IMG/VR virus record: IMGVR_UViG_3300017735_002163
Span: 19,377-83,376 of that record
Strand: one strand, 5' to 3'
Origin: a virus
DNA length: 64,000 bases
Below the pieces are notes generated by a model, which saw only the letters and a program-made list of their open reading frames with translations, searched no databases and had not been told where the DNA came from. Below, piece after piece: positions 518 to 60,176 of this stretch; within the stretch, counting starts at the first letter, position 1, and every line of letters starts with the position of its first letter. The translations under genes and the position numbers were made by a program.

Positions 518-655
518 TTAAACTCCACTGGTCATGTGTTCGTATGCTTCATTACATTCTGTAATTTGCTCGCCACATGCACAGGTTTGCTCTTCTTCAA
601 GAGTTGGCGCACCAACTAATGATCTTATTTGTTCTTCTGTATAATTTTGTTCCAT
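518..655 (-). CDS. small hypothetical protein, 45 aa (MEQNYTEEQIRSLVGAPTLEEEQTCACGEQITECNEAYEHMTSGV), possible Zn binder
   Basis: Translated by hand (below the ORF-track cutoff); CxC..C..H residues; ATG 6 nt after a TATAAT box. Confidence 0.65.
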   Translation of the reverse strand: MEQNYTEEQIRSLVGAPTLEEEQTCACGEQITECNEAYEHMTSGV

Positions 656-661
656 GCTACT

Positions 662-689
662 ATTATAGCAAATTAGAAAAGTTTGTCAA
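662..689 (-). promoter_or_regulatory. sigma70-type promoter for the small ORF and tRNA cluster
   Basis: TTGACA-16 nt-TATAAT with TGn extension. Confidence 0.75.
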
Positions 690-694
690 CCTGT

Positions 695-1156
695 TTATTG
701 AATTACAATATCTTCCATTCCAGCAGTTCTAAGTTTTGTGATGTGTCCTATTTGCCATTGCTTGACATCTAAGCCTTTCATAATACCTAAGTACCTGTTT
801 CTCAATAGACTGAATTGGTTACATAGATGCGTTAGGTCAATAACACTATCTTCACCGTCAACATACTTTTCAGCATCTCTGCTGGACAGTTGTCTATTGT
901 ATGTTTCCAAATACTTGCGGAATGTTTTAGAACGTTCTTTGCGAAGTTCTATGTTTAAGTGTTCGAGGATTGCTTCAATCTCTTGTAACTGATTAAAGCG
1001 ATGTTCTGTGATGCCGGGTAAGGCAGAACTGGATTTCTCCAGACTGCCTCTTATCCCAACTTCATACTTGGCTTCCTCAAGTTCGTTTTCAAAGTAATTT
1101 ACTGAATCAACGATCTCACCTAAATTACCAACTACTTTATTATACCAAGTACTCAT
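695..1156 (-). CDS. uvsY: UvsY-like recombination mediator
   Basis: 153 aa helical protein with KYVDGE and KQWQIGHITKLRTAG motifs; downstream of uvsX. Confidence 0.75.
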   Translation of the reverse strand: MSTWYNKVVGNLGEIVDSVNYFENELEEAKYEVGIRGSLEKSSSALPGITEHRFNQLQEIEAILEHLNIELRKERSKTFRKYLETYNRQLSSRDAEKYVDGEDSVIDLTHLCNQFSLLRNRYLGIMKGLDVKQWQIGHITKLRTAGMEDIVIQ

Positions 1157-2511: not shown

Positions 2512-3528
2512 TTACCCGTTGCTTCTGTTACGAATCATCTGTAAGATGTCATCTGCTGATTGCTTTCCTTTATCTACTTCAGGTGCAGGAGCAGGTGCTA
2601 CTGGAGCCGCTGTTTCTACTGCTGGTGCAGGTGCTACTGGAGCCGCTTCTGCTACTGCTGGTGCAGGTGCAGGTGCCGCCGTTGGTGCTACTGGAGCCGC
2701 CGCTTGTGCTGGAGCACTTGTGGCTGGTGTCGCTGTGCTTGGAACTTCTACGCCATATGGCTTGTAAAAGTTACCCCAACGCTCTGGATCATACAACTCA
2801 CCATCTACTGATGCCGCAAACATTTCTGTAATTGCTTGGTATCCTTCTGCAGTTGGCTTTGCAGGCAAAAAGTCTGCTAAGTTGTGTAAACCATTTGTGT
2901 CTACTGCCGCAAGTTGTACTTCATCTAATGCACTCTCTTTACGAGCCCATTTTGATGTACTGTAGTCTGCGTATTGACCTTTGGTTGTTTTTGTGACTCT
3001 AAAGTCAGTACCTGCAACATAATCAGTTGGAATGTTTTCCATATCTGGATCCATAAGTGCTGATTTAATAATGTTGAAGATTTGTGGTGAAATCACAAAA
3101 CGTCTAATTGGGTTTTCTGGTGATTCCTCGTTGAGAGGATTCTCAGTTACAAATCCTTGGAAAATGTATGAACGTTTTTTCCAATACTTTCTGCCCATAT
3201 CTTCTAAAGATGCGTCTTTGAACCAAGGACGTACTTCAGTTAGTACTGGACACGAATCGCCGTACATTTCACCGCAAGGTACTTGTACTGTAACTGGTTT
3301 GTTTTCTCCACCTTTCACACCTGGGAAAGTCAAACGAATCATTTGACGTTCTACCCAAAAGAATGTGTTATCTGGATCTGAGTCTGGTAAGAATCTCAAT
3401 ACTGCTGAGGTACCTTCGTCAATATTCCAGTGTGGATAAATTGCGTTGTCGCTTTGTGAGTTATTTTTGGAACCGGGTTTGGTTTCCATTGATGAGAGCT
3501 TCGCTCTGATTTCTGCTAATGAGGCCAT
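2512..3528 (-). CDS. gp32: single-stranded DNA-binding protein (gp32-like) with Pro/Ala-rich linker
   Basis: LRFLP, C..CPV Zn motif, YWKKR, YADYSTSKW; next to uvsX. Confidence 0.85.
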   Translation of the reverse strand: MASLAEIRAKLSSMETKPGSKNNSQSDNAIYPHWNIDEGTSAVLRFLPDSDPDNTFFWVERQMIRLTFPGVKGGENKPVTVQVPCGEMYGDSCPVLTEVRPWFKDASLEDMGRKYWKKRSYIFQGFVTENPLNEESPENPIRRFVISPQIFNIIKSALMDPDMENIPTDYVAGTDFRVTKTTKGQYADYSTSKWARKESALDEVQLAAVDTNGLHNLADFLPAKPTAEGYQAITEMFAASVDGELYDPERWGNFYKPYGVEVPSTATPATSAPAQAAAPVAPTAAPAPAPAVAEAAPVAPAPAVETAAPVAPAPAPEVDKGKQSADDILQMIRNRSNG

Positions 3529-3586
3529 GATGTTTCTCCTGTAATTGCCATGTTTGCCATAGTCGTAATCATATGATTACTGGTTT

Positions 3587-3615
3587 ATTATAATTGCCAA
3601 GATAGAATTTGTCAA
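3587..3615 (-). promoter_or_regulatory. sigma70-type promoter for ssb-uvsX-uvsY
   Basis: Perfect TTGACA-17 nt-TATAAT. Confidence 0.85.
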
Positions 3616-3685
3616 CCGTTTTTTTACATTGTTTCAAAAAAAACTTTGTTTGTGGAGTTAACTCCTTCTAACAGTTTTATTTATC

Positions 3686-3710
3686 AAAAAACCCGCATAT
3701 AGCGGGTTTT
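3686..3710. terminator. intrinsic terminator, possibly bidirectional
   Basis: AAAAAACCCGC-ATATA-GCGGGTTTT after the 418-aa gene. Confidence 0.8.
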
Positions 3711-3738
3711 ATTTGGTTAGTTCTTTTAAAACAGTAAC

Positions 3739-4995
3739 TTACAGGATATCTAATGATTCCATGAATGCTTCAAACTTAGCACTGTGATCTTCTGCTACTG
3801 CTTTAATTTGTGGTTGATTAGCACTTAGTAAACAACTCTTAATAGTTGCATACTCATGTTGATTAAGTCCTGCTCCACCACCAATCTTTTTACTGATGCC
3901 GTTCAAGTAAGTACCTAACATTGGATTAGTAGATGATTGACTCATTTGTGATACTTGGTGACTAAGTTTTGCCGCTGGTGAAATAAATTCAACACCGTCA
4001 TCTTCTGACAACAAGTTCTTGAGGTTATCAAACTTTTCATTCTGTACTGCTAATGTAATACTTTCTTCAAACTGTGATCTTCTTGACATAGCACTTTTGA
4101 TACTTGACATAGCATTTGCTACTCTGTCATCAAAATGTGTTTCTGTGAATTTTGCTTCTAAGTCAATATCATCTTCAAGTACTTCTATTTGACTTCTACC
4201 AATAACGCTCTCAGATGTATTTGCATAAGTTTTAGCACCTGCAAGTTTCTGTAATGTGTCATTGATACTGTTAATATTTTCAACAGCAATATTTACATAC
4301 TCTTCGTTGGTTTCATTTACCAACCCGCCCTTCTTAACATAACGAACAAACTCTTTTAATGTTCTATGTTCAGCGGCCATTTCAGTAATGCTCTCACCTA
4401 CTGTGTCATGCATTTCTCCGCCTTTCTGTATATGGCGTGCCATTGCTCTTGCGGCTTTCAAATTGTTTTCAGCCATTTTAAATCTTTCGTCACCACGTTG
4501 TATAAAGATGCTGTGGATATTTCTGCTTCTTGCTCCACGTACTTCTTCGTTAACTGCTTTCTTGTGTCTCACAACGATTTTGACATTATCAAGTCCTTGG
4601 TAACTGGTTTTAGTACTGCCAGTCATTGCACCAAATCCTTCTAATACATCTGCCATGTCTTTCTCCTGCTTTTGTGCGATATCAATCATCTCTGATTTAG
4701 GTTCTAATCTTCTATCAAACACTTTAAAGTCAAAGTTTTGTAAATTGTCAGTTGCTAAATCTTTTAACATAGTACGTAATTGCTCTGATTCTTCTGCTGT
4801 ACTTGTAGCAAACTGAATTGTTTGATTAGGCTTGTCATAACGCACAATCATGTTAGGATCCGCTACTACAAATCGTGTTGCGTCCTGTGGATCAATTGTA
4901 ATCTTGCCTTCGGCACTAAAACTTTTAACCTCAAGACCGAAGCCTTTCATAAGGTTAAAGATTTTTTCTCCTACTGCATCTGCGTTAACTGCCAT
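3739..4995 (-). CDS. hypothetical protein, 418 aa, probably virion-associated
   Basis: Long ORF with AGGAG RBS and an upstream GATAAATA late box; follows terminase. Confidence 0.7.
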   Translation of the reverse strand: MAVNADAVGEKIFNLMKGFGLEVKSFSAEGKITIDPQDATRFVVADPNMIVRYDKPNQTIQFATSTAEESEQLRTMLKDLATDNLQNFDFKVFDRRLEPKSEMIDIAQKQEKDMADVLEGFGAMTGSTKTSYQGLDNVKIVVRHKKAVNEEVRGARSRNIHSIFIQRGDERFKMAENNLKAARAMARHIQKGGEMHDTVGESITEMAAEHRTLKEFVRYVKKGGLVNETNEEYVNIAVENINSINDTLQKLAGAKTYANTSESVIGRSQIEVLEDDIDLEAKFTETHFDDRVANAMSSIKSAMSRRSQFEESITLAVQNEKFDNLKNLLSEDDGVEFISPAAKLSHQVSQMSQSSTNPMLGTYLNGISKKIGGGAGLNQHEYATIKSCLLSANQPQIKAVAEDHSAKFEAFMESLDIL

Positions 4996-17879: not shown

Positions 17880-19763
17880 TTATGCTTTGTCAATGATGTT
17901 ACTTAAATAACCTCTTCTGCGTCTAAACAAAAGATTGTCCACATGTTCTTTCATGTTTTCCGGGAACATATTTGTTCTGTCACTTACTATATAAGTCGAC
18001 GGGGTCATGTCAAGTTCAATTTTTTGGTCTTGTACGTAATCCCAGAGGTTAGTAAAGGTATTTATAGATTCTGAGTTAAAACGTGTGTTTTTGAATTGTT
18101 TTATACGTTTTATAGTTATATTTCTATAATCTGCAAGGATTTGCTCGGGGGTGTCAGGATATTGTTGTTGTGTGTAATCGCTAACACATTGTATAGCATA
18201 TTCTAATAAGTCTTCGTTTTGCAATGTAGACATCAAACTGATAATAATTTGCCAACTGTCAAATTTGTAGTCTTTGCTTTTGAGTGAAAAGTATCCGGTT
18301 CTGTGCCATTTGTGTATGCCGTCTCTGATTCTATCTTCCAGTTGGATAAACACAGGGTTGCGTTTGAACTCTAAAAACAATCCTTCATAAAATTCTTTGT
18401 AAGTGGTATTACCCTGTTTAACCAATGCTCTCGATATTATATCGGATATACCTTGTGTGTGCAAACCTGTTATGTACCATGCTGTGATAAATGCTTCTAT
18501 GATATCTGATTCAGACATAGTGCTGGTACTTTTTATAATAGGCACGTCTTCGTCAGGCACCTTTGAGTTGAAGTCATTGGTTTCGTAAAACATGTCATGT
18601 GCAATAAATGTTTCCAATTGATACTTTTCAATATCCTGTTGCATTGGTGCATTTTCTAACATGTTTAACAGGAACACGTCGAGCCCACTGTGTAGTCCTG
18701 CATCAAGCACATCATAATAAACATTCTTAATGGTGTCAAGTGTTTCGGTTGGTAATCCAACAATTATTTCTGTGAGAATAGAGATTTGATTTTTTATTCC
18801 TAAGTCTGTGATGTCTCGTATATCATTAATACCCATGTTGGTACGTTTAATTGCTTCTAATACGTTTGGGGTAGTTGTTTGTAAACTTAAAGTAAATCCA
18901 CTTCCTACTCCTGCTTCTTGAAACTTTCTAATGATGCCAAACACATCTGCATTACTGTTTTTAGCATAACTCACACTGAGACCTGTTGGAACTGAATACA
19001 GTTTTTTAGACTCTACTATTTTATCTGCTATGAGATTATCTCTTTCTCTGAACACACCGTAGTTTGCATTTGTGAGATTAATGAAAGGTAGACCGTTTTT
19101 GGCAAACCATTCTATTTCAGCAAACACTCGATCTAATTTAAATTTAATAATTTTACTGTTAGTTGCACTACCCCAATCACAAAATGTACATCTATAAGGA
19201 CAACCTCTGTCTGTCTCTAAAGTAGGCACCCATTCTATATCTGGGTAATCTGTGAGGAAGTGATCGAACACACCATCCAGATAAGGACTGGGTGTTTCTA
19301 ATTTTTTAAGACGTTCAACAGTGTGTGTTCGTGGTAGTTCTTTACCGTCTAAAATCATTAATAGCAATTCTTGTACACATACTTCACCCTCACCAATACA
19401 AATGGTGTCTATGTAAGGGTGTTCTATAAAGTAACTTGGACTTGTATGTGCAACTTCGGGGCCACCAATTAAACTTATAACAGCAGGATTAATTTCTTTG
19501 ACACGTTTTGCTAATTCATAAGTGTAGTTTTTATTCCACACATATAAACTGTACAACACTACATCACACTTGGCTAACTGCTGTGCTGTTTCTTCAACTG
19601 GGTCTCGTCTAAATGCCCAAACGTCTGCTGAAAAATGTTCTCTTATTTCTTCATTTTGTCTTGCATAGGCCCATAGCACACCAGAAGTGTAGGGCAAGTA
19701 GAAAGAATTTAGTATCTTGGGACCAGTTTGAAAATTTATTTGTGCTAACCCAAGAGAGAACAC
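17880..19763 (-). CDS. B12-binding radical SAM enzyme
   Basis: RGCPYRCTFCDW CxxxCxxC motif; N-terminal cobalamin-binding-like domain (YVWN, GGPEV). Confidence 0.9.
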   Translation of the reverse strand: MFSLGLAQINFQTGPKILNSFYLPYTSGVLWAYARQNEEIREHFSADVWAFRRDPVEETAQQLAKCDVVLYSLYVWNKNYTYELAKRVKEINPAVISLIGGPEVAHTSPSYFIEHPYIDTICIGEGEVCVQELLLMILDGKELPRTHTVERLKKLETPSPYLDGVFDHFLTDYPDIEWVPTLETDRGCPYRCTFCDWGSATNSKIIKFKLDRVFAEIEWFAKNGLPFINLTNANYGVFRERDNLIADKIVESKKLYSVPTGLSVSYAKNSNADVFGIIRKFQEAGVGSGFTLSLQTTTPNVLEAIKRTNMGINDIRDITDLGIKNQISILTEIIVGLPTETLDTIKNVYYDVLDAGLHSGLDVFLLNMLENAPMQQDIEKYQLETFIAHDMFYETNDFNSKVPDEDVPIIKSTSTMSESDIIEAFITAWYITGLHTQGISDIISRALVKQGNTTYKEFYEGLFLEFKRNPVFIQLEDRIRDGIHKWHRTGYFSLKSKDYKFDSWQIIISLMSTLQNEDLLEYAIQCVSDYTQQQYPDTPEQILADYRNITIKRIKQFKNTRFNSESINTFTNLWDYVQDQKIELDMTPSTYIVSDRTNMFPENMKEHVDNLLFRRRRGYLSNIIDKA

Positions 19764-57976: not shown

Positions 57977-58834
57977 ATGTCAAAAAACCAAAATCCACTT
58001 CAGGGCTATTTTAGAAGTCCTAAGTTATACACCAAGATACCATCGCAAGGTTTATTTTATATTGATGATGACGTCGTTGACATGCCAGAAAATGGAGAGT
58101 TAGCAATATTTCCAATGACTGCCAAAGACGAAATGATCATGAAAAATCCAGATGCGTTGCTTAACGGTGAATCAGTGGCCCAGGTAATACAAAGTTGTGT
58201 ACCAGCAGTCAATAAGCCAAGGAGTCTCATCAGCAACGATGTAGATGCACTGCTTATTGCTATACAAGGTGCTACTTACGGTGACGAAGTTAACATATCC
58301 GGTACATGTCCAGAATGTGAGGAACCAATTGAAAGTGTTGCCAGTATTGAAATGGCATTAGACACAATGAGCATTGTGGAAGAATCATATGTACACAAAA
58401 CAGCAGACGGTTTAGAACTTGAAATAAGACCATTCACATATGAAAGTTCAGTAAAAGCCGGAATTGCAAATTTCCAAACATCAAGAAGTTTACAAAGCAT
58501 TCAAGAAATTGATGACGAAGTAGAACAACTTAGACAGTTTAACACAAACTTTATGCAAGTTGCCGCACTTAACTTTGAACTCATTGTTGACAGTGTAGCA
58601 AGTGTCAGAGGCAAAGATGCTGAAGGTGAAGAGTTCCTTGTAACTGATAGAAACAATATCAGAGAGTTCCTTGAAAATTCTGAAAGCAGTATTGGTAAGG
58701 CAGTTGAGGCCAAAATTGCAGACGTAAACAAAGTTGGTGTTAACAAAGAAGTTCAATTAGAATGCGAAAAATGTGAGGTCCAATTTACAAAAGAAATTGG
58801 CTTTGACCCTGTAAATTTTTTCACGGCTTCCTAA
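57977..58834 (+). CDS. gp26: baseplate hub / tail assembly chaperone (gp26-like)
   Basis: NPL..YFR.P, PMTAKDE, two CxxC pairs, ends DPVNFF. Confidence 0.75.
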   Translation: MSKNQNPLQGYFRSPKLYTKIPSQGLFYIDDDVVDMPENGELAIFPMTAKDEMIMKNPDALLNGESVAQVIQSCVPAVNKPRSLISNDVDALLIAIQGATYGDEVNISGTCPECEEPIESVASIEMALDTMSIVEESYVHKTADGLELEIRPFTYESSVKAGIANFQTSRSLQSIQEIDDEVEQLRQFNTNFMQVAALNFELIVDSVASVRGKDAEGEEFLVTDRNNIREFLENSESSIGKAVEAKIADVNKVGVNKEVQLECEKCEVQFTKEIGFDPVNFFTAS

Positions 58835-59055
58835 GTCGATCTGAACCCCAAGAGATTCTCAACCTCATAAACAAACTTAGAAAAGAAGCCGATCAATTAG
58901 AAAAGAGTATAATTGAGATAGCCGTGTATTCCAATGGAAGTATATCATGGCAAGATGCTTATATGATGAGTGCAAATGAAAGAGTTGTGGCTACAAAAAT
59001 AATAAACAAGTACAACAAAGCAAAAGCAGGAAAACCAGAATCAGAAGAATTATAA
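58813..59055 (+). CDS. start-less -1 frame extension (gp51-like), probably reached by frameshift
   Basis: Frame open 58807-59055: KFFHGFLSRSEPQEILNLINKLRKEADQLEKSIIEIAVYSNGSISWQDAYMMSANERVVATKIINKYNKAKAGKPESEEL; begins at slippery A AAT TTT TTC. Confidence 0.7.
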   Translation, partial: KFFHGFLSRSEPQEILNLINKLRKEADQLEKSIIEIAVYSNGSISWQDAYMMSANERVVATKIINKYNKAKAGKPESEEL

Positions 59056-59234
59056 TTTCTGTTAGAAGATCAAAAAAATTTATTCCCTTCAAGTCAAAAT
59101 ATCCTATAAAGTTTAACCTCAAGTAAATAGGCCTGTTAGGCCTTTCCAAACCTCATTCTCTCGTTTCGTTTCACTCAACTCGATCATTCGTTTGAAACAC
59201 TTTAGAAGAAAGAACATATAAACACAATGACATG

Positions 59235-59660
59235 ATTTTGTTTTGAAGAAACAAAATTGGTATCTCATGTAGATTGTAGAGGTCAGACGGAACCTATTAC
59301 GGTTCCTTAAAAAAATACCTCATGTGAGTTGTACATCAGCCGAGATCGGAAGTAGGTGTTTTACTGCTACACAATGGGCTCTGACCTTTCCCAACCTACG
59401 TCGACATCTAATGTGCAATATATGTAACATTAAGGACGCATACAGCGGTTAATGTGCAATATATGTAACATTATACCTGTACTCTCGTTCCTAAGTGTAC
59501 AGTTTTTATGTGTAATATGCAGTTGTTTGATTGACAGCATTCAATCGGCACCAATACTTAACACCAGTGGGTGTGTCTCAGTGTGTACGTGTCTGATTAC
59601 ATTTTCGTCAGTTTTTCCACAGCAGAATTAATAACCGGCCTGCTAACCTTGTGTGCTGTT
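59235..59660 (-). ncRNA. candidate large structured RNA downstream of the GIY-YIG gene
   Basis: No ORF; at least seven hairpins, an 8-bp long-range pairing (59280-59287 with 59380-59387), and G-U pairs favouring the minus strand. Confidence 0.6.
59409..59473. repeat. exact 24-nt hairpin direct repeat pair separated by 17 nt
   Basis: TAATGTGCAATATATGTAACATTA at 59409-59432 and 59450-59473; spacer AGGACGCATACAGCGGT. Confidence 0.95.
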
Positions 59661-59673
59661 TATGTTTGTGAAA

Positions 59674-59730
59674 GACTTTGTGTCTGGTGAGTTTGACTTG
59701 GTGTCTGTTAGTTTGACTTTGTGTCTGTTT
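59674..59730. repeat. three imperfect ~20-nt tandem repeats (GACTTKGTGTCTG core)
   Basis: Units start at 59674, 59695 and 59715; a degenerate fourth copy lies near 59646-59663. Confidence 0.85.
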
Positions 59731-59750
59731 ATGCCTTGTTCGTTATATAA

Positions 59751-60176
59751 TTATATCTTATCAAGTGCTTCACGCAAGATTTTTGAACCGCCTACTCTAA
59801 CATTAATAATTCCGTTATAGTAATCGTCTGTGAGCAATACATTTCTGTCAAACTGCTCTTTTGCTTCGAGGTAACTTGCAACACCTCTGCTTGGACAAAT
59901 GTGTAAAATTTGTCTGGTAAATTTATCTTCGCCTAATTCTAACACATCTGCTTGTAGATTATCTGAACTACCCCAATAATCACGCCAGTCACTTTCTTTA
60001 GTGCCACGACGTTTGTTCTTTTTACCTTTCAAGGGTGGTTTGGTTGTTTTGAATTTGGCAAGTTTTTTACCTACATACATCCTGCCATTGGTTGTATTAG
60101 TGATCAGATATACAAATGCTTCACAGCCTTCTGGCAATACGTTTAGTACTTTGTTGTTATATGTCCAATCACTCAT
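59751..60176 (-). CDS. stand-alone GIY-YIG (Seg-like) endonuclease-family protein, 141 aa
   Basis: FVYLITN..NGRMYVGKK (GIY-YIG variant), YWGSS, catalytic-position E in YLEAKEQ, YYNG; no extra DNA-binding domain. Confidence 0.8.
   Translation of the reverse strand: MSDWTYNNKVLNVLPEGCEAFVYLITNTTNGRMYVGKKLAKFKTTKPPLKGKKNKRRGTKESDWRDYWGSSDNLQADVLELGEDKFTRQILHICPSRGVASYLEAKEQFDRNVLLTDDYYNGIINVRVGGSKILREALDKI

Follow-up and report, generated by a model that had tools for sequence, protein, structure and literature searches.

A repeat-spacer-repeat unit in a marine T4-like phage as a probable variable hairpin of a large noncoding RNA

The DNA analyzed here (hereafter the window) is a stretch of 64,000 nucleotides (nt) covering positions 19,377 to 83,376 of the IMG/VR virus record IMGVR_UViG_3300017735_002163, a fragment of an uncultured marine T4-like myovirus whose full record comprises 83,376 bp. 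At 59409–59473 it contains a repeat-spacer-repeat unit, in which two identical 24-nt repeats flank a 17-nt segment (the spacer). Our results suggest that this unit is probably a variable hairpin (expansion helix) at the periphery of a large structured noncoding RNA, its arms being formed by the repeats and its tip by the spacer, and that it does not serve as a guide. The RNA would be read from the minus strand, right behind a SegE-like GIY-YIG gene of marine T4-like phages. Within this RNA, the two repeats would form the arms of one long imperfect hairpin with three helices of 6–7 bp and two 3 × 3 internal loops, and the spacer would form the hairpin tip, closed by a mini-stem of 3 bp. The hairpin would be a tolerated, fast-evolving and recombination-prone extension, whose size and sequence are free while it folds back on itself, and it would have no sequence-specific role.

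The variable site among relatives

A census was carried out with a pattern derived from the nearly invariant core beside the unit (59380–59408, minus strand, defined by alignment), and at least 119 viral contigs were matched. Combined with earlier loci, at least 139 motif-bearing loci were obtained, and 85 distinct segments between the conserved flanks could be identified among the matches listed. These 85 segments were 10–78 nt long (median 53 nt), and that of the window was among the longest. They belonged to mutually unrelated types, namely mini-hairpins with a helix of 2–4 bp, simple long inverted repeats, GC-rich branched stems and AT-rich stems. For 64 of the 65 segments of at least 25 nt, the minimum free energy structure was a single hairpin, with apical loops of at most 8 nt (median 3 nt). 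When these 65 segments were examined in the RNA sense, 56 had a z-score below −2 against mononucleotide shuffles (mean z about −4). What is conserved at this site is a helix closing on itself, and both its length and its letters are free. A direct repeat of at least 10 nt was present in 30 of the 85 segments and, by our own reading, one of at least 14 nt was present in about a dozen.

The site was the most length-variable part seen between two nearly invariant blocks, and one hairpin type was found together with differing downstream sequence types. Contigs of co-occurring relatives from three RNA libraries and one DNA library departed from the window exactly at 59407/59408 and ran on into other hairpin types known from the census. 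Fourteen DNA runs (dated 2017–2025) held 95–99% of the sampled words of a 1.1-kb stretch, and no insertions or deletions in the unit were seen in the four runs examined, which included RNA-library contigs of three studies. The original prediction, made from the window's letters before any comparison, had placed the unit within a conserved scaffold and had expected that a guide would appear among related phages as a hypervariable spacer with conserved flanks. The scaffold is present, apparently as a structured noncoding RNA with nearly invariant flanks, and the site between them is indeed variable. However, the variation consists of unrelated hairpins of 10–78 nt, whereas the spacer is fixed within each haplotype.

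It should also be mentioned that, in one seawater DNA run, the summed contig depth was 2950 at 59348–59401 and 1374 at 59780–59833, compared with about 15 in neighbouring bins (a difference of about 100-fold). It seems that the RNA core and part of the GIY-YIG gene are nearly identical, letter for letter, in a very large number of phage genotypes that occur together.

Sequence, predicted fold and strand of the unit

The same 24-mer occurs at 59409–59432 (repeat 1) and 59450–59473 (repeat 2), with 17 unrelated bases in between (59433–59449). With up to three mismatches allowed, these were the only two copies in the window, an outcome that was obtained in none of 100 dinucleotide-preserving shuffles, and no third copy was present in the whole 83,376-bp record. 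At the same tolerance, no second match to the spacer could be found in either the window or the whole record. Thus, both the pair of identical repeats with self-complementary ends around a 17-nt segment and the lack of a full spacer match elsewhere in the window had been described correctly before.

Each repeat is composed of a 6-nt end stem, a 3-nt bulge word, a self-complementary ATATAT centre, a second 3-nt bulge word and another 6-nt end stem, and the six bases at its two ends are mutually self-complementary. By hand count, a repeat and its own reverse complement are alike at 18 of 24 positions, and repeats 1 and 2 are 76% complementary across 25 nt. The near-palindromic character of each repeat makes the direct repeats imperfect inverted repeats of one another as well, and it is the reason why direct repeats could serve as the arms of a hairpin. 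In the RNA sense, that is, on the minus strand, repeat 2 would be the 5′ arm and repeat 1 the 3′ arm. The predicted long fold contains an end stem, a 3 × 3 internal loop, a six-pair AU helix, a second 3 × 3 loop, a 7-bp helix and the mini-stem tip, in which 59437–59439 pairs with 59445–59447 and closes a loop of 5 nt. The predicted folding energy was −14.7 kcal/mol on the minus strand (z = −0.65) and −18.1 kcal/mol on the plus strand (z = −2.04), and a single repeat alone reached −1.7 kcal/mol, compared with the −14.7 kcal/mol of the long fold in the minus sense. As the fold of the unit itself is unremarkable, the argument for a hairpin is comparative rather than thermodynamic. A promoter scan revealed one overlapping match (59401–59430, 9/12), which is at background level, and none placed right after the unit.

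Because the window's own type has no informative variation, the pairing test was performed on a sister type of like build, which contains two 18-nt near-palindromes and a short spacer and was represented by eight distinct aligned sequences. In three of the eight, the outer halves of repeats 1 and 2 stayed paired by a double change (pair 10–52: AU in five sequences, UA in three), and in these same three sequences both corresponding pairs of the two-hairpin alternative were broken. Double changes were counted in four cells for the long hairpin and in one cell for two hairpins, and shuffles reached the observed value in 5 of 500 cases for the former and in 62 of 500 for the latter. This covariation appears to favor, modestly, the long hairpin over two hairpins, and the window's own type would be expected to adopt the long-hairpin conformation as well. 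It had been proposed in the original prediction that the spacer could be displayed as a loop by pairing of the two repeats, a fold to which the comparative data also point; its other suggestion, a pair of protein operators, is disfavored by the compensatory changes of the sister type.

The strand was examined by using the conserved stem-loop next to the unit (59474–59507, minus strand), whose stem is formed by 59477–59482 and 59497–59502. Its loop word GGAACGA is invariant in the RNA sense, and an A-run precedes it in the same sense. Double changes were observed at three of the four consensus pairs (in 16, 16 and 15 of 45 sequences, respectively), and in the minus sense U·G was found in 20 cells versus C·A in 4. 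In addition, the GIY-YIG gene is inverted in two loci (L042 and L043). In L043, in which the gene is at 3082–3495, the noncoding gap behind it (3508–4756) lies between a small frameshift open reading frame (ORF) and gp46, and the sole 21-nt match of this gap to that of the window is likewise inverted. The nuclease gene and the noncoding stretch behind it thus appear to be inverted together. Together with the wobble and covariation in the stem, this arrangement favors the minus strand, the one that had been presumed before, and the RNA would thus be read from it. A plus-strand reading, in which the T-run after the neighbouring stem would be a terminator, was dropped after the wobble counts and the inverted arrangement of L043 had been obtained.

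A strand test based on folding energy was also tried. The minus strand was favored for 53 of the 65 variable segments and for 43 of 60 whole elements (60 of 106 were folded). However, shuffled sequences were shifted by −2.9 kcal/mol in the same direction, and z-scores were about −4 on both strands. Since the shuffles show the same shift, this preference mostly reflects base composition, and the test was discounted and not counted as evidence. Contigs from the RNA libraries X15, X16 and X17 covered the unit and parts of both the RNA and the nuclease gene and left 58970–59293 uncovered; these data are contigs that carry no strand, ends or expression level, and DNA carry-over is possible. The gap in coverage carries no weight as evidence.

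With regard to the spacer, one form was observed in the haplotype common to the window, L003, L202 and L206, and one form in the L133 haplotype, which was present in eight contigs (five viral and three metagenome contigs, possibly including the same assembly more than once). The spacers of the two haplotypes differ by point differences and one indel, and on the alignment we found by hand that the mini-stem in the L133-type tip is kept via a C-G to A-U change. In two further relatives, hand comparison showed the spacer to be alike at 12/17 positions (L191, on the opposite strand) and at 13/17 positions (L200). Exact matches to the 17-mer occurred in four unrelated viral contigs (GC content 0.40–0.63), mostly inside ORFs, and in 19 taxonomically scattered genomes from soil, gut and other phyla. 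Under uniform composition, about 6 matches would be expected by chance in the viral collection, whose size is given as 48.6 Gbp (PMC10690425), and about 69 in 596 Gbp of genomes. No spacer target beyond chance could be identified in the phage's own record, in viral contigs or in genomes, although an exact search with 17 nt has little power in databases this large and the host was not identified. Pairing of the loop with the rest of the RNA was no better than that of shuffled loops either, 82 of 100 of which were at least as good. As the spacer is invariant within haplotypes, the insert is absent in most relatives and no target beyond chance was found in these searches, the proposal that the spacer is a guide or target-recognition loop was rejected.

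Recombination traces, alternative explanations and known systems

Several traces of recombination could be recognized at the hairpin. In L191 (about 640–790, minus strand of the locus), a homologous hairpin is present, and its first arm and its tip run in the opposite direction with respect to the RNA core; the tip matched the opposite strand at the 12 positions mentioned above and the same strand at 5/17. It looks as if the tip of the palindrome had been flipped. Such an inversion argues against a guide, as it would destroy the meaning of a guide and not that of a palindrome tip. True inverted arms are found in L191 and in a larger group (L087, L111 and L203 types), and words of the window's repeat recur in them. 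By contrast, two direct copies are present in the haplotypes of the window, L133 and L200, and in these copies the two 3-nt words, which would pair in a true inverted repeat, are placed opposite each other as internal loops. The simplest history of the direct repeat would be that the unit was once a true inverted repeat and that template switching or conversion within the palindrome replaced one arm with a copy of its partner.

A copy of the unit was also found in L200, a 1.7-kb low-coverage metagenome contig, in which 84 nt (1225–1308) are 88% identical to 59407–59490 of the window (repeat 1, 24/24; tip, 13/17; repeat 2, 21/24). The match between L200 and the window's record is limited to those 84 nt, and the setting is unrelated: an aminotransferase-like gene, a DUF454 gene, a small ORF, the unit, a sigma-70-like promoter and another ORF. 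Relatives of the DUF454 gene were present in 78 viral contigs, and because such relatives are common in viral contigs, L200 was treated as phage DNA; a blastn search of L200 against deposited phage genomes gave no match. None of the 78 DUF454 loci matched L200 beyond position 1242, and the unit starts at 1243. In the closest relatives of L200, the short reading frame that is cut by the unit appears, by our own reading, to continue. One of the two junctions lies in a short stretch resembling the neighbouring loop of the RNA, and the other lies at the hairpin base. It looks as if illegitimate recombination, or recombination guided by microhomology, had moved an entire hairpin into a terminator/promoter position.

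Adjacent pairs of the sister-type 18-mer were also observed in 500–750-nt stretches without long ORFs in other phage contigs (L298 4040–4200, L292 3093–3137 and L296 677–760; also L294). The pair in L298 lies among CCATAAAA repeats, beside promoter-like boxes, and resembles a DNA control region. No RNA core was detected at these stretches by a sequence profile, which also missed the distant true relatives L025 and L043, and Rfam returned nothing for five loci with look-alike palindromes.

Several observations weigh against a variable peripheral hairpin. The unit of the window folds better on the plus strand (−18.1 versus −14.7 kcal/mol), and the population-wide preference of folding energy for the minus strand is mostly a composition effect. 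The pairing test comes from the sister type and not from the window's type, and it involves few events among related sequences. The support from RNA libraries consists of contigs without transcript ends or strand, and such libraries may contain DNA. The 18-mer pairs in noncoding regions where no core was detected (L292, L294/L296 and L298) would also fit protein-binding sites. Moreover, the direct repeat is perfect (24/24), whereas the inverted relation holds at only 18/24 positions, and each repeat of the two main haplotypes retains the bulge words GCA and GTA. This hints at a constraint on the sequence of the individual repeats, which would not be required of a helix acting only as a spacer. 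Because these 3-nt words are kept, another explanation stays alive, namely that the unit contains two equivalent binding sites for one protein, either as RNA hairpins (6-bp stem, 12-nt loop) or as 24-bp near-palindromic DNA operators that are 41 bp apart, or about four helical turns. It would account for an exact direct repeat that includes non-palindromic triplets and keeps them in both L133 repeats although the central hexamer has drifted. Two direct copies of a near-palindrome likewise make up several unrelated hairpin types of this site, and the 18-mer pairs outside a recognizable core, including the one near promoter-like boxes in L298, point in the same direction. However, the relatives span mini-hairpins of 2–4 bp to long simple inverted repeats and hence conserve no common site. 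In the sister type, the outer half-sites change together and the inner ones stay, which fits a long hairpin and not independent palindromes, and a single repeat folds at just −1.7 kcal/mol. The motif is also not dispersed: the pair was the only one in records of 83, 118 and 236 kb (the last had two weak extra motif matches versus one control match), in a search for dispersed copies that left out the metagenome records L202, L206 and L208. Taken together, we regard two protein-binding sites as rather unlikely.

The recombination traces raise the possibility that the unit is a palindromic cassette at the DNA level with no role in the RNA, which would both result from recombination or template switching and be a preferred site for them, and whose presence in the RNA would merely be tolerated. 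It would resemble the stem-loops of the terminator/promoter cassettes by which T4-like genomes are shuffled. The L200 copy fits this explanation, as it lies between a gene stump and a sigma-70-like promoter in an unrelated intergenic site and is not matched in the syntenic relatives closest to L200. The inverted tip of L191, the single hairpin type with different downstream sequence types and the branching of contigs from co-occurring strains exactly at the hairpin base are also in line with it. However, L200 is only one low-coverage contig, and a cassette accounts for origin and turnover and is compatible with a role in the RNA. In addition, some hairpin, even a minimal one, is kept by nearly every family member, which suggests that the RNA needs a closed helix there. 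A merely tolerated cassette is therefore considered unlikely. We also give little credence to the idea that the variable helix is a docking site for mobile palindromic hairpin cassettes and that the resulting lineage-specific tag on an otherwise invariant RNA is a determinant of identity or incompatibility; such cassettes would move between genomes or loci by recombination or template switching at their bases, and the tag could act through a protein or a loop-loop contact. Finally, it is very improbable that the 17-nt segment is a programmable guide or target loop on a conserved scaffold, possibly serving the neighbouring GIY-YIG nuclease. It is true that the segment lies in the most length-variable part between two nearly invariant blocks, and that the RNA stays beside a nuclease gene whose product has no recognizable DNA-binding domain. 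However, the variants are self-complementary hairpins with small apical loops (median 3 nt, at most 8 nt), many relatives hold just a mini-hairpin of 2–4 bp there, and the spacer has one form per haplotype, its forms in different haplotypes are homologous, and in L191 it is inverted. No target was found in the phage's own record, exact matches in other sequences were no more frequent than expected by chance and came from unrelated organisms, and the pairing of the loop with the RNA was equalled or beaten by 82 of 100 shuffled loops.

As a variable peripheral hairpin, the unit can be compared with several known systems. Variable peripheral helices are represented by the expansion segments of rRNA and by the variable stems of RNase P RNA and group I/II introns. 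As in expansion segments, a helix of free length and free sequence emerges from a fixed point between conserved core elements, and folding back is the only feature that is kept. In contrast, the helix described here would belong to an uncatalogued phage RNA, and several of its variants consist of two direct copies of a near-palindrome; we know of no report that such copies are typical of expansion segments. A different likeness concerns the L200 copy. PeSLs are described as composite terminator/promoter cassettes of T4-like phages, in which a stem-loop is joined to an early promoter and which lie between genes at indel points (PMC4122927). On inspection, the L200 copy agrees with this description, being a stem-loop with a sigma-70-like promoter between genes, at an indel point among related genomes. 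PeSLs recur many times per genome, whereas the motif of the unit was not dispersed in the genomes searched; furthermore, the unit of the window is inside the candidate RNA gene, no promoter follows it and no second copy is present in the record. The likeness noted here is one of layout.

The repeat-spacer-repeat layout in an RNA beside a small nuclease gene is shared with CRISPR and OMEGA (IscB/TnpB) guides. A CRISPR array contains at least three (or at least two) repeats of about 24–48 nt and unique spacers of about 26–72 nt. In contrast, the unit has two 24-nt repeats and a single 17-nt spacer, which does not qualify as such an array; the spacer shows no turnover within haplotypes, and its foreign matches are at chance level. 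No cas, IscB or TnpB protein was found among the seven neighbouring proteins scanned, the rest of the window not having been scanned for cas. Thus, the earlier statement that this is not a canonical CRISPR still stands. Unlike an OMEGA guide, which is a constant-length single-stranded end, the segment is internal, folded and 10–78 nt long among relatives. The unit also differs from paired operators in that unrelated sequences occupy the site in relatives and no dispersed copies were found. With regard to turnover, quasi-palindromes reportedly mutate by template switching (Ripley's model), and the terminal hairpins of parvoviruses occur as flip and flop isomers. Processes of this kind would explain both how one arm came to be replaced with a copy of its partner and why the orientation of the tip differs between lineages; here they are deduced from end states, and no intermediate or isomer within a population was observed.

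The surrounding RNA and genes

The whole noncoding RNA candidate extends approximately over 59129–59750 (minus strand), between the GIY-YIG stop codon and a terminator-like hairpin, and this ORF-free stretch of about 600–700 nt is kept in relatives. The terminator-like hairpin (59129–59143) was identified by a terminator scan of the minus strand. This GC-rich hairpin (GGCCT...AGGCC) lies between the convergent hub gene and the RNA and covaries among relatives, with GGCC, GACAC and GGTCC versions; it could be a terminator for transcription from both sides. Within the RNA candidate, ACCTAC (59394–59399) pairs with GTAGGT (59352–59357), and TCTGACC (59380–59386) is complementary to GGTCAGA (59281–59287), which by inspection is a candidate pseudoknot. 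A direct-repeat scan revealed two copies of the 7-nt word CTCATGT (59264–59270 and 59319–59325, minus strand), which change together among relatives: the inner four letters are ATGT, TGAC, ATAC, ACGT or ATGC, and both copies are alike in each phage (by eye, 15 aligned sequences). The conserved blocks of the gap also include hairpins with both sides changing together. It should be noted that the covariation alignment of 106 full elements was ragged (830 columns) and unfit for a reliable consensus fold.

Just behind the stop codon of the GIY-YIG gene, three tandem copies of a word with AGAC-N5-GTCT were observed at 59674–59727, with a spacing of 20–21 nt. They form the 5′ part of the RNA in the minus sense, and similar words recur in relatives. 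These words could be protein-binding sites or part of the RNA fold.

Searches of Rfam revealed only three tRNAs in the whole window at gathering thresholds and only two chance-level matches in the region of the unit with E up to 10. A literature search of limited extent found no paper on this RNA or hairpin. The IMG/VR catalogue of candidate structured RNAs (PMC10690425) contains motifs of 29–151 nt, and pieces of this RNA may be among them.

The neighbours on one side are the portal gene, a gene for a protein of 1157 amino acids, for which no confident family match was obtained, and a gp26-like baseplate hub gene (plus strand), followed by about 700–900 nt without a convincing ORF. Beyond this noncoding gap, the minus strand encodes the SegE-like GIY-YIG protein, gp46, gp47 and gp55. 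The SegE-like gene (59751–60176, minus strand; Pfam PF19835, E = 8.4e-33) lies directly upstream of the RNA on the same strand, and its product of 141 amino acids consists of the GIY-YIG domain only, with no recognizable DNA-binding domain. Relatives of this region were collected as 41 viral contigs encoding homologues of the gp26-like hub protein (53–98% identity). A small overlapping reading frame after the hub gene was kept in all 40 loci running past the end of this gene, and in all of these the same order was observed: the gp26-like gene, the noncoding gap, the SegE-like gene and, where the locus reaches, gp46/gp47. In loci that were long enough, the GIY-YIG relatives were 73–88% identical. 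The gap from the small frame to the GIY-YIG gene was 516–2156 nt long (37 measured, 30 distinct sequences). The frame itself (58807–59055), which is in −1 relative to the gp26-like gene and overlaps its end, has no ATG, GTG or TTG before 58924, and its product aligns from residue 1 in 40 of the 40 related loci past the hub gene end. A T TTT TTC slip site is present within this frame at 58816–58822.

This analysis removes a false lead, as the unit appears to be neither a phage mini-CRISPR nor a programmable guide beside a nuclease. With a variable peripheral hairpin at this position, a widespread and uncatalogued large RNA of marine T4-like phages gains a defined expansion site, which has a fast turnover and nearly invariant flanks. 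In modelling or structure work on this RNA, a mini-hairpin could probably take the place of the helix, as it does in natural relatives, and the sharp junction at the hairpin base (59408|59409) provides a natural strain marker in metagenomes. The turnover at this site appears to proceed through the dynamics of palindromes, that is, arm copying, tip inversion and transfer of a hairpin to another locus, which would be a mildly new aspect of the evolution of these phages.

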